From the NCBI RefSeq assembly GCF_024298765.1, contig NZ_CP101210.1: a stretch of DNA of 64,000 nucleotides; one strand, 5' to 3'. This DNA comes from Escherichia coli. Lineage in GTDB: Bacteria > Pseudomonadota > Gammaproteobacteria > Enterobacterales > Enterobacteriaceae. A program made the position numbers. Below, in pieces: positions 61,001 through 64,000 of the stretch. Positions within the stretch are counted from its first letter, which is position 1, and the number at the start of each line of letters is the position of its first letter.

Positions 61001-64000
61001 GGCGATGCCGATGTTATTAGCCGGATTCGCGCCACGCTCTATTCCGGCGGCAGTCAGATTCAGGGGGCGCAGGCATTAGAGGTGTTGCGTGGTCTGGTGC
61101 TCGCGCCAGTGATGCACGCGGTGCAGGCGGGGGTATCTGAACGGTTGCTGGCTTTGCTTAACGGCGGCGCGGTGGCGGAAGTGAAAAGCGCCGTCATTGC
61201 CAATGCACAGTCGAAGGTATTGATTGTAGAGTTTCATCAGCCGATTGCCGCCAGAGTGCTGGAAGAGGCGCAGAAACTCGGTGCCTTGCCTTACCCGGTT
61301 GGTGCAGAGTCGAAATATGAAATCCCGCCGCTCTTTTATCGACTTTCCGGAACGTTTCGCCAGGCGAATCCGCAGTTAGAACATTGCGCGATTCGCATTA
61401 ACCCAAATCGCAGCGGTGAAGAGACGATATTGCGGATCTTGCGTGAAAGTATTGCCAGCATTTAATCGTTGTAAACGATATTTTTGAAAAGAATGCAGAA
61501 ACAAATACGCCCTCGGGTAATCTCGAGGGCGTCAGGCAATTAAACCGGCGTTAGCCGATTTCTGTCAATGGCTTACTGTGCAGTCGGACCGCAACCGCCA
61601 ATGATTTTAGAAATAGAAATTGCCGGGTGCAGCAGGTAGTCGTAAGAGCAGTTCTTATCACGGTTTTCAATATGACCAGTACATGCAGTTAACGTAGCCA
61701 GTACTGCGCCTACCAGTGCAACTTTAATAAATTTGTTCATTTACATTCCCTATGTATTATATATTAATTAATATTCATTGATTATATGAATATAAGCAGA
61801 CTGCTCATTAAGAACGATACAGGAATATTCAATTAGCGTCAGTGAGCGATTGATTTAATTTTGTCAGTCGCTGTAACGGTGAATATAACCCATTAGCAGA
61901 CAATATTTATTAAGGGGGTATGTTTTTATCTGCTGAATATATAAAGAGAGTTGTAAACGAAAAAGGCCAGACTTCTCTGGCCCTGGTTAAATTAATGGTT
62001 AGAGAACCAGTTCAATTTATCGCGCAGGCCAACAACCCGACCAATAATAATTAGCGATGGACTGTTCATTTGCTGCGCCAGTTCGCCCAGCTGCGTGAGC
62101 GTACCGTCAATCACGCGCTGCGTGACTGCCGTTCCGTTTTCGACAATTGCCACCGGCATTTCACCAGGCATACCGTATTCAATCAGCTTTTGCTGAATAG
62201 TTGCAGCCTGATTCAGCCCCATATAAAACACCAGCGTCTGTTTTTCTGCCGCCAGGTTTTCCCAGTCCAGCTCGCCCCCGGTTTTTAAGTGTCCAGTAAT
62301 TAAGCGTACGCTCTGGGCATAATCGCGATGCGTGAGCGGAATACCCGAATAGGCAGAGCAACCAGAAGCTGCGGTAATACCCGGAACCACCGAGAATGGA
62401 ATACCCGCGTTGCACAGTGTTTCCAGCTCTTCTCCGCCACGCCCGAAAATAAACGGATCGCCGCCTTTCAGACGCACCACGCGTTTACCTTTTTGCGCTT
62501 CCCGCAGCAGGATCTGGTTAATCTCTTCCTGCGGTACGCAGTGGTATCCCGCGCGTTTGCCGACGAAAACGCGATCAGCATCGCGGCGTACCAGATTCAT
62601 AATATCGTCAGAAACCAGACGGTCGTAGACCACCACATCTGCCTGCTGAATTTGTTGCAGACCTTTCAGTGTCAGCAGCCCGGCATCGCCCGGACCTGCA
62701 CCAACCAGCACCACTTCACCGCGATGGTCGAGCGGTTCATTGATTAACTGTTCGGTGGTTTCAGTAATGGCTTTCTGATCGTTGTTGGCCAGCGACTGCG
62801 CCAGGCGGTCGTTAACGAACAGTTTTTCCCAGAAACGGCGACGCTCACCCATCGTGGCGAACTGCTGTTTTACTCGCCCGCGTAATTGCCCGGCGTATTT
62901 CGCTACCTGGCCCAGATGTAACGGCAGCAGTGATTCGAGTTTTTCGCGCAACAGGCGCGCCAGAACCGGAGAGGTGCCGCCAGAGGATACCGCTACCATG
63001 AGCGGTGAGCGGTCAATAATCGACGGCATAATAAAGCTGGCGGCTTTCGGCGCATCGACCACGTTACAGAAGATGCGACGAGCTTCAGCGGCTTCGCTGA
63101 CGCGCTGGTTAAGCGCGTCATCATCCGTCGCTGCAATCGCCAGCCAGCAGGTGTCGAGAAGGCTTTCATCAAATGGCCCTTCGACGAGGGTTAACATGCC
63201 TGCATCTGCCCATGCGGTGAACTGTGGAATAAACGCTAATGCATTCACCGTTAAGCGAGCGCCTGCGTCTAACAGCAACCTTGCTTTGCGTTCCGCGACA
63301 TCACCACCGCCGACAATCAGACAGTCGCGATCGCGTAATTGGCAAAATATAGGCAAATGATCCACGTAAAAACCCCTTAGTAATTAACCGGCAGCCGTTT
63401 CAGTTTGATTAAATTTGTCCGCAACCGGACGATTCGCTTTCGGCGTAGCATACCAATAACCCAATCCCATGAATACGGCACCCGATAAAGTATTACCCAG
63501 CGTCACCCACAGCAGGTTATGACCAATGCCCGCCAGCGTGTAGGCTTCGCTGTGGTTGCCGAACCAGGAGAGTGCGAACAGCGTCATGTTAGCGATGGAG
63601 TGCTCGTAGCCGGACGCGATAAATGCCAGCAAACACCACCAGATAGCGATAAATTTCGCCGCCCCTTCAGTGCGCAGCGCCATCCAGATAGCCAGACAAA
63701 CCAGCCAGTTACACAATGCACCTTTGAAGAACAGTACCATTGCCGGTGCAGTGGTTTTAGCCAGCGCGACGGAGTGAACGATGCTGGTATCGACCGGCAG
63801 CAGGCTACCGCCGCCCCAGCTATAAAGCATGGCAACGAAGACGGAACCGACCAGGTTACCCAGCCAGGTTTGCGGCAGGATTGCCCACATTTGCCCGTGG
63901 CTGATGGTGCCCGCTTTCACCCCAAAGGTGAGGAACATGGTGTGTCCGGTGAACAGTTCAGAACCAGCAATAATGACCAGCGTTAAGGCGATACCAAAGG

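Follow-up and report, generated by a model that had tools for sequence, protein, structure and literature searches.

yhfL, a long-annotated small gene downstream of cysG in Escherichia coli, very likely encodes a conserved lipoprotein

The feature analyzed here, in a window of 64,000 nucleotides (the whole stretch of Escherichia coli DNA under analysis, contig NZ_CP101210.1), was yhfL, a long-annotated E. coli gene; the finding was correct, ordinary and already known. Taken as a whole, the evidence was best explained by a real, conserved, stand-alone gene encoding a lipoprotein, which we regard as very likely. The gene name, strand and length proposed in the initial annotation agreed with the ORF listing, RefSeq and Pfam, and the 55-amino acid product translated from the window sequence, MNKFIKVALVGAVLATLTACTGHIENRDKNCSYDYLLHPAISISKIIGGCGPTAQ, was the one quoted there.

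61573..61740, minus strand: yhfL coding sequence, ATG start, 55 codons plus stop; DUF4223 lipoprotein precursor

The window DNA was 100% identical to E. coli chromosomes in which this ORF is annotated as yhfL; in these identical records the product is the RefSeq “YhfL family protein” (WP_001031834.1), and its K-12 counterpart, b3369 (NP_417828.1), is labelled “DUF4223 domain-containing lipoprotein YhfL”. Pfam DUF4223 (PF13978) matched with 129.2 bits (gathering cut-off 27, E=5e-38) over residues 1-54 and profile positions 1-54 of 54, that is, at full length, and no other family was found in the Pfam search at E≤1. The HMM score, the length of ~55 amino acids with the mature core, and the position downstream of cysG all placed the product in the YhfL/DUF4223 family, which is narrow and mostly enterobacterial. 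With 55 amino acids, yhfL fell below the 60-amino acid default of the ORF lister, and for this reason it was absent from the ORF track used for the initial annotation. The claim made there that length-filtered annotation overlooks the gene held for that track only, and not for real annotation pipelines: yhfL was annotated in all the E. coli complete-genome records inspected, and since public pipelines call it, it is no example of missed small-protein content there. As a discovery yhfL is therefore of little weight (b3369 in K-12, a Pfam family of its own, called by the NCBI pipeline in practically all E. coli genomes); it is useful as a calibration point, showing that genes that are real and under strong constraint are lost to a 60-amino acid ORF cut-off.

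Conservation was high both within and beyond the species. yhfL was found at a coverage of at least 80% in 5402 of 5426 complete E. coli genomes, with at least 95% identity in all but one, whereas the identity of the cysG-yhfL spacer fell to 80-95% in 4084 genomes, making the spacer far more polymorphic than the ORF. Between the seven genera compared, pS was 0.46-0.94 and pN 0.06-0.20, with dN/dS (omega) values of 0.05-0.17 where computable; the protein was 69-80% identical across genera, and synonymous sites were near saturation. Conservation of the reading frame, proposed as a check in the initial annotation, was observed across Enterobacterales, and yhfL is under strong purifying selection. 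In the 24-genus alignment, the columns corresponding to C31, Y33, D34, Y35, H38, P39, S42, S44, K45, I47, G49, C50 and G51 were invariant, and all of these residues were present in the window protein. Rare disrupted alleles were detected in E. coli assemblies, and in S. Typhimurium DT2 yhfL is listed as one of the genes whose coding capacity is altered (PMC3760250); the gene is therefore dispensable.

yhfL adjoined cysG on the downstream side and on the same strand, an order shared by strain 104 and K-12, and was flanked by terminators on both sides, which supports a stand-alone unit.

61992-61994, minus strand: cysG stop codon (ORF listing)
61963..61984, minus strand: terminator-like hairpin after the cysG stop codon, 9-pair stem, then TTTCGTTTAC (terminator scan)
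61542..61561, minus strand: additional 8-bp hairpin, AAAUCGGC-UAAC-GCCGGUUU, between the yhfL stop codon and its terminator (minimum-free-energy fold)
61497..61532, minus strand: intrinsic terminator of yhfL, 9-bp stem (7 G-C pairs), 8-nt loop, then ATTTGTTTCT

The terminator-like hairpin of cysG separates yhfL from the nirBDC-cysG operon. At the other end, the hairpin reported 3' of yhfL in the initial annotation was recovered as a G+C-rich stem with a T tail (61532-61507, ACGCCCTCG-N8-CGAGGGCGT followed by ATTTGTTTCT), the fold of the 86-nt 3' tail having a z-score of -3.7; yhfL was also trailed by a hairpin and a T-run in Salmonella, Citrobacter, Cronobacter and Xenorhabdus. The Rfam scan of positions 61300-62200 on both strands gave no match at E≤1, and consequently no known RNA element accounts for the hairpins or the spacer of the yhfL region.

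Two hairpins in a place where gene content varies are also what might be expected if the ORF were incidental and the functional element were RNA or DNA (for instance, a terminator/insulator module or regulatory RNA lying between cysG and the operons that follow). In keeping with this, the literature mentioning yhfL contained no direct record of translation, lipidation or localization: yhfL was not found in the supplements of the E. coli membrane-localization proteome (PMC7055658), nor yhfL/b3369 in those of INRI-seq (PMC9825163) or RiboReport (PMC8921622). This explanation is nevertheless extremely improbable and already contradicted by the pattern of conservation, which was seen at the amino-acid level, with near-saturated synonymous sites and unconserved flanking non-coding DNA (upstream of yhfL, the Shine-Dalgarno element was the only part that could be aligned across genera). 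The Rfam result also speaks against it. The length and frame of the gene were kept in wholly different genomic contexts: its neighbors were bigA in Salmonella and Citrobacter, frlR in Cronobacter, and different again in Xenorhabdus, Edwardsiella and Serratia. Conserved neighbors were considered as a clue to the function of YhfL and rejected, since the contexts differed between genera.

The DNA preceding the protein-coding gene included a spacer with a candidate promoter and a Shine-Dalgarno-like element.

61741..61991, minus strand: cysG-yhfL spacer, regulatory region, 251 bp, 32.3% GC
61781..61811, minus strand: candidate sigma-70 promoter, TTAATG (61811-61806), 19-nt spacer, TATAAT (61786-61781), read by eye
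61747..61751, minus strand: Shine-Dalgarno-like AGGGA, 6 nt before the ATG

The AT-rich region of about 250 bp described upstream of yhfL in the initial annotation corresponded to this 251-bp spacer (32.3% GC vs. 52.4% for the window as a whole); only 0.2% of the 251-nt windows were equally AT-rich, and the window-wide GC minimum at this size fell in the spacer. A ribosome-binding site, the absence of which had been named as an argument against the gene, was present as AGGGA, whose duplex with the anti-Shine-Dalgarno sequence (-5.9 kcal/mol) was better than that of 95% of random positions; of the upstream sequence, A(A/G)GGA in this position alone was conserved from genus to genus. The candidate promoter was assigned to yhfL because it aligned with a site published for K-12, TTAACG-19-TATAAT, the constitutive RpoD promoter of yhfL in Shimada et al. 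2014 (PMC3946193). Its 19-nt spacer is non-optimal, and the consensus promoter scan, which allows 16-18-nt spacers only, for that reason found no sigma-70 site in the cysG-yhfL spacer.

Several K-12 studies bear on the regulation of the gene. In genomic SELEX, the cysG>yhfL spacer contained an RpoD promoter and was bound by H-NS (PMC3946193), and an RpoS peak fell in the same spacer (PMC5493296). Of the genes repressed when Nac was induced, yhfL responded most strongly (fold change 0.008), and a ChIP peak was present (PMC5217608). In S. Choleraesuis, yhfL mRNA was assayed by qRT-PCR as the cysG-adjacent gene (PMC10667801). Judging from the K-12 work, promoters for sigma-70 and sigma-S within the AT-rich spacer would drive transcription of yhfL, which would be damped by H-NS and strongly repressed by overproduced Nac, so that expression would be conditional.

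The amino-terminal part of the product had the organization of a lipoprotein precursor.

61684..61740, minus strand: signal peptide, codons 1-19, n-region with K3 and K6, hydrophobic core VALVGAVLATL
61681..61692, minus strand: lipobox L-T-A-C, codons 17-20, conserved across the family
61681-61683, minus strand: Cys20 of the lipobox, predicted lipidated first mature residue

The lipoprotein signal peptide with the lipobox LTAC, as first read from the sequence, was corroborated by a PROSITE-type rule (basic n-region, uncharged hydrophobic core, and [LVI][ASTVI][GAS]C with the Cys at position 15-35), which YhfL matched, and by its family. The rule alone was matched by 17 of the 2704 start-to-stop ORFs of the window, vs. 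3-14 per shuffled window, a chance rate of ~0.5% of ORFs; among the family members of 50-60 amino acids it fitted 100 of 106, 80 of them with LTAC-TG. The motif by itself was thus not beyond chance, and the lipoprotein signal of YhfL is credible because the lipobox is conserved across the family; more generally, such a match convinces only when family conservation is added. L17, T18 and C20 were invariant and A19 at least 90% conserved (24 genera), and the n- and h-regions varied between genera, yet stayed basic and hydrophobic.

The mature protein had Thr at +2 and Gly at +3, and the +2 residue was Thr or Ser throughout the family, never Asp. In E. coli, Asp at +2 is the Lol-avoidance signal. 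By analogy with known lipoprotein biogenesis, the YhfL precursor would be exported by Sec, diacylglycerylated on Cys20 by Lgt, cut before this residue by LspA and then N-acylated by Lnt; the Lol pathway would pass it to the inner leaflet of the outer membrane, because +2 is Thr and not Asp. On this sequence basis, YhfL is probably anchored in the outer membrane.

Signal peptidase I favors small residues at -3; YhfL, with Leu at -3 and the invariant Cys at +1, has the signal peptidase II pattern. This argues against cleavage of YhfL by signal peptidase I to yield a periplasmic or secreted peptide, as does the conservation of the Cys and lipobox in 100 of the 106 members, and the lack of Asp at +2 in any family member argues against an inner-membrane-retained lipoprotein. 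Either fate, in place of an outer-membrane lipoprotein, is unlikely, and current K-12 and Salmonella annotations give YhfL as a lipoprotein or putative outer-membrane lipoprotein. In favor of such fates are an older annotation of YhfL as a “conserved secreted peptide” (quoted in PMC5493296), the lack of localization data in the PMC7055658 supplements, and the strand that began right after the lipid-bearing Cys in both AlphaFold runs, which may leave little flexible tether.

As the preferred outer-membrane lipoprotein, YhfL would consist of a short mature peptide with two further conserved cysteines.

61576..61683, minus strand: mature 36-residue peptide, CTGHIENRDKNCSYDYLLHPAISISKIIGGCGPTAQ, from Cys20 onward
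61648-61650, minus strand: Cys31, putative disulfide partner, invariant in 67 mature sequences
61591-61593, minus strand: Cys50, putative disulfide partner, at least 90% conserved in 67 mature sequences

These 67 mature sequences included distant members (Aliivibrio, Cellvibrionales, Carnimonas). The conserved mature core was C-x-Y-D-[YF]-L-L-H-P-x-[IV]-S-[ILV]-S-K-x-I-G-G-C, and a C31-C50 disulfide is probable: the core, C31-SYDYLLHPAISISKIIGG-C50, would be closed by a DsbA-made disulfide into a stapled loop of ~20 residues following a short beta-hairpin. AlphaFold pLDDT values were 61.7 for the full-length protein (24 sequences) and 65.3 for the mature part (67 sequences). The beta-hairpin (mature residues 2-6 and 13-17) was predicted in both runs with modest confidence, and as the models were of low confidence, neither the hairpin nor the proximity of C31 and C50 is established. 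Foldseek of the YhfL model against the PDB gave no match at E≤0.001, and a profile search of PDB sequences none at E≤1; given the weak models and the lack of a PDB match, no fold could be assigned. A metal site formed by C, H and D residues was also considered and set aside, H23 and H38 not being conserved in the distant members.

YhfL is a functional orphan. Its 20-residue core, bounded by Cys residues, is unusually well conserved, which makes the protein a sensible small target for work on the envelope. No paper was found that defines a function for E. coli yhfL, some of the mentions being Bacillus papers that use the name in another context, and the literature search for “DUF4223” returned no paper; in Salmonella, a yhfL deletion strain did not differ from the wild type in the single assay described (PMC12070745). 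The extreme conservation of the loop, a size too small for an enzyme and the absence of conserved neighbors suggest, speculatively, that YhfL may serve some conserved component of the envelope as its ligand or accessory subunit, and not act as a catalyst. In a more specific form, which we put forward only tentatively, the near-invariant C31-C50 loop might be a dedicated ligand, or an accessory/regulatory subunit, of an outer-membrane machine, much as LptM is for LptD, with its production conditional and under the control of H-NS, Nac and sigma-S. If this were true, a 36-residue lipopeptide, an orphan since 1997, would at last have a function.

Two types of small lipoproteins were compared with YhfL. 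LptM (YifL) is a small lipoprotein that assists the maturation of the LPS translocon LptDE. YhfL resembles LptM in general terms only: both are enterobacterial lipoproteins of very small size that lack an enzymatic domain, and YhfL could, by inference, bind a larger envelope machine, but the mature sequences are unrelated. Membership of YhfL in the LptM family was rejected: NCBIfam NF047847 scored 12.6 bits (cut-off 27.7) and matched residues 1-20 only, that is, the signal peptide and lipobox.

Entericidins A and B (EcnA/EcnB) are small lipoproteins with a lipobox and stress- or stationary-phase-linked expression. YhfL, a very small lipoprotein too, is of comparable size, has a lipobox and may share this type of expression, its AT-rich, H-NS-bound promoter region containing a sigma-S SELEX site and its transcript level swinging strongly on Nac induction; together with its dispensability and occasional disruption, this would be compatible with an entericidin-like toxic or bacteriolytic lipoprotein, silenced by H-NS and expressed in stationary phase or under stress. 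Such a role is very unlikely, however, as no Entericidin Pfam match was obtained at E≤1, no paired antidote gene lies beside yhfL (nor was an adjacent antidote-like paralogue present in any of the seven genera), and the mature part is predicted to be Cys-stapled and beta-rich, without an amphipathic helix. The near-universal retention of yhfL in E. coli and its tight purifying selection are no less compatible with an accessory role of the housekeeping type.

Comparison with K-12 showed an identical YhfL protein and two synonymous nucleotide differences in the gene. The candidate -35 element differed in one base, the Shine-Dalgarno element was identical, and the terminator stem was the same, with differences confined to its loop-proximal end and the loop; the hairpin at 61542-61561 lost its loop-closing pair in K-12. 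The distal upstream spacer differed by ~8%, including small indels beside the cysG terminator. In K-12 yhfL is followed by frlABCDR, whereas in the window it was directly followed by the convergent yhfS. The window strain is without the frlABCDR operon, and the yhfL region is a junction at which gene content varies.

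The initial annotation had proposed a 55-codon gene, yhfL, missing from the ORF track, and this was confirmed: the minus-strand ORF at 61573..61740, starting with ATG, and its translation (MNKFIKVALVGAVLATLTACTGHIENRDKNCSYDYLLHPAISISKIIGGCGPTAQ) matched the quoted protein exactly. The gene was absent from the length-filtered track because the ORF lister by default requires 60 aa and the protein has 55. The protein was identical to that of K-12 MG1655 b3369 (“DUF4223 domain-containing lipoprotein YhfL”), with two synonymous differences at the DNA level, and the Pfam family DUF4223 (PF13978) matched it end to end (129 bits, cut-off 27). 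The 651 bp spanning yhfL were 100% identical in many E. coli chromosomes, in which the ORF was annotated as yhfL, “YhfL family protein”, and every full-length complete-genome row inspected carried a yhfL annotation. The gene was indeed overlooked by the length filter of the first stage, but it is already known and routinely annotated elsewhere. The sole NCBIfam signal, a match to LptM, was below threshold, lay in the signal peptide region and was not meaningful.

Of 5426 complete E. coli genomes, 5402 contained the ORF at 80% coverage or more, every match but one being at least 95% identical; the cysG-yhfL spacer was just 80-95% identical in 4084 complete genomes. Between seven genera (E. coli, Salmonella, Citrobacter, Cronobacter, Serratia, Edwardsiella and Xenorhabdus) the synonymous proportion was 0.46-0.94 (near saturation), the non-synonymous proportion 0.06-0.20, and omega, where computable, 0.05-0.17; the reading frame was conserved in relatives. 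The DNA upstream of yhfL could not be aligned between genera, apart from the ribosome-binding site A(A/G)GGA, and no Rfam family matched the region. Nearly saturated synonymous sites, low non-synonymous change and unalignable flanking DNA together make up the pattern of a translated protein, as opposed to a functional RNA or a DNA element. An incidental ORF is highly improbable, being contradicted by these omega values, by the unalignable upstream DNA and by protein conservation across 24 genera.

Rare E. coli alleles in public assemblies (protein variants P0004, P0010, P0051, P0058, P0097 and P0115) had a C-terminal frameshift, a stop loss or a replaced N-terminus, and some variant clusters numbered 27-45 member sequences. 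They suggest either that the gene is now and then pseudogenised or that its T- and A-runs repeatedly cause assembly errors. yhfL is clearly dispensable in some lineages.

A PROSITE-type lipobox rule was applied to start-to-stop ORFs of the window and of shuffled windows: 17 of 2704 window ORFs fitted it, against 3-14 in each shuffled window, and the motif alone was no more than chance. The LTAC lipobox initially reported for YhfL was convincing because of its conservation across the family. In the 24-genus alignment the signal peptide varied freely in its n- and h-regions, L17, T18 and C20 were invariant and A19 nearly so; 100 of the 106 family sequences of 50-60 aa fitted the rule (80 with identical LTAC-TG), and none of the 106 had Asp at +2. 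Release of the peptide by signal peptidase I, or retention in the inner membrane, is accordingly rated unlikely. Following established lipoprotein biology, the precursor would be exported by Sec, modified by Lgt at Cys20, cleaved by LspA, acylated by Lnt and, because +2 is Thr, carried by Lol to the outer membrane.

A word-indexed search recovered 269 YhfL clusters, all DUF4223 and from Enterobacterales, and when 1.84 billion representatives were searched exhaustively by profile, only 73 matched at E<=0.001, a good number of which were fragments. Distant relatives occurred in Aliivibrio salmonicida, Cellvibrionales, Carnimonas and a few metagenome bins. Among 67 mature sequences the lipid-bearing Cys, C31 and S42 were invariant, and T21, G22, Y33, D34, P39, G48 and C50 were at least 90% conserved. 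Because two extra cysteines are conserved in an exported protein, C31 and C50 probably form a disulfide, DsbA being expected to oxidise the pair; speculatively, the stapled, nearly invariant 20-residue loop might bind a conserved envelope partner. An entericidin-like toxic lipoprotein is likewise rated unlikely. AlphaFold confidence was modest (pLDDT 61.7 for the full-length protein, 65.3 for the mature peptide); each run placed a β-hairpin directly after the lipid-bearing Cys (mature residues 2-6 and 13-17), with an uncertain C-terminal half. Among solved structures there was no sequence relative and no Foldseek match.

The gene also carried its own expression signals. An AGGGA ribosome-binding site lay 6 nt 5' of the ATG, with anti-Shine-Dalgarno pairing of -5.9 kcal/mol, stronger than about 95% of random positions. 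The terminator scan picked up the hairpin initially noted after the gene and a separate one belonging to cysG:

61532-61507, minus strand: yhfL downstream hairpin, 9-bp stem with 7 G-C pairs, 8-nt loop, then ATTTGTTTCT
61984-61963, minus strand: cysG terminator-like hairpin

The 86-nt 3' tail folded more strongly than 200 of 200 shuffles (z = -3.7). yhfL was shown to be a coding gene that is conserved and under selection; it encodes a lipoprotein-type signal and has a ribosome-binding site and a terminator of its own. Directly 3' of the stop, before the true terminator, lay a second, 8-bp hairpin (61542-61561, minus strand; AAAUCGGC-UAAC-GCCGGUUU) without a T-run, whose loop-closing pair has been lost in K-12.

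The very AT-rich region described upstream was the 251-bp cysG-yhfL spacer (61741-61991), at 32.3% GC against 52.4% for the window; it included the lowest-GC 251-nt stretch of the 64 kb, and 0.2% of such stretches were equally AT-rich. The spacer was far more polymorphic across E. coli than the genes flanking it (identity was 80-90% in 758 genomes and 90-95% in 3326). Where it departed from K-12, small indels included, the changes were concentrated beside the cysG terminator, and the ~65 nt closest to the ATG were the same in both. Five other stretches had GC <= 36% over 251 nt and are possibly further AT-rich regulatory spacers:

5817-6125
11030-11564
25447-25835
28765-29022
33568-33919

In K-12, genomic SELEX mapped both H-NS binding and a constitutive RpoD promoter (TTAACG-19-TATAAT) to this spacer (PMC3946193), and a sigma-S holoenzyme peak was also reported there (PMC5493296); the candidate counterpart of the promoter in the window was TTAATG-19-TATAAT (61811-61781). 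Nac induction repressed yhfL more than any other gene (fold change 0.008), and a ChIP peak was seen as well (PMC5217608). Its mRNA was measured by qRT-PCR in S. Choleraesuis, as a cysG-adjacent gene (PMC10667801), and it appears among stress-responsive or differentially expressed genes in published lists. An antibody-escape screen in S. Typhimurium enriched two CRISPRi spacers that target yhfL, yet the deletion mutant was wild-type-like (PMC12070745); the DT2 pathovar was listed with altered yhfL coding capacity (PMC3760250). According to a 2026 preprint, E. coli evolving in germ-free wild-type mice acquired parallel adaptive mutations in the yhfL/frlA intergenic region (10.64898/2026.05.27.728231), a region present in K-12 that the window strain lacks because frl is missing. 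No paper assigning a function was found, and direct evidence that the protein is translated, lipidated or localised as predicted did not turn up in the published data searched.

yhfL is a stand-alone unit, bounded by terminators on both sides; in six of the seven genera the DNA upstream is AT-rich. Its neighbours were as follows:

Window strain: cysG > yhfL < yhfS
E. coli K-12: cysG > yhfL > frlABCDR < yhfS
Salmonella: bigA > yhfL < trpS
Citrobacter: bigA > yhfL < yhfS
Cronobacter: frlABCDR > yhfL < trpS
Xenorhabdus, Edwardsiella, Serratia: unrelated genes

Because the neighbours were not conserved, they gave no guilt-by-association clue to function. The slot 5' of yhfL held cysG in the window and K-12, whereas in Salmonella and Citrobacter (loci L002 and L008, positions 1-3808) the immediate upstream neighbour was a BigA-type gene of very large size, for an autotransporter or adhesin; because of this replacement, the interval, with trpS or yhfS downstream, is a gene-content hot spot across Enterobacteriaceae. 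Between yhfL and yhfS, K-12 carries a REP-like element and the fructoselysine operon frlABCDR (5.3 kb), whereas the window has neither, and only about 40 nt (61466-61506) separated the yhfL terminator from convergent yhfS (stop codon 61465). Of the 5426 complete E. coli genomes, 1475 shared this frl-less junction, among them Nissle 1917, LF82 and ST131 strains; in Cronobacter the frl operon was placed upstream of yhfL instead.
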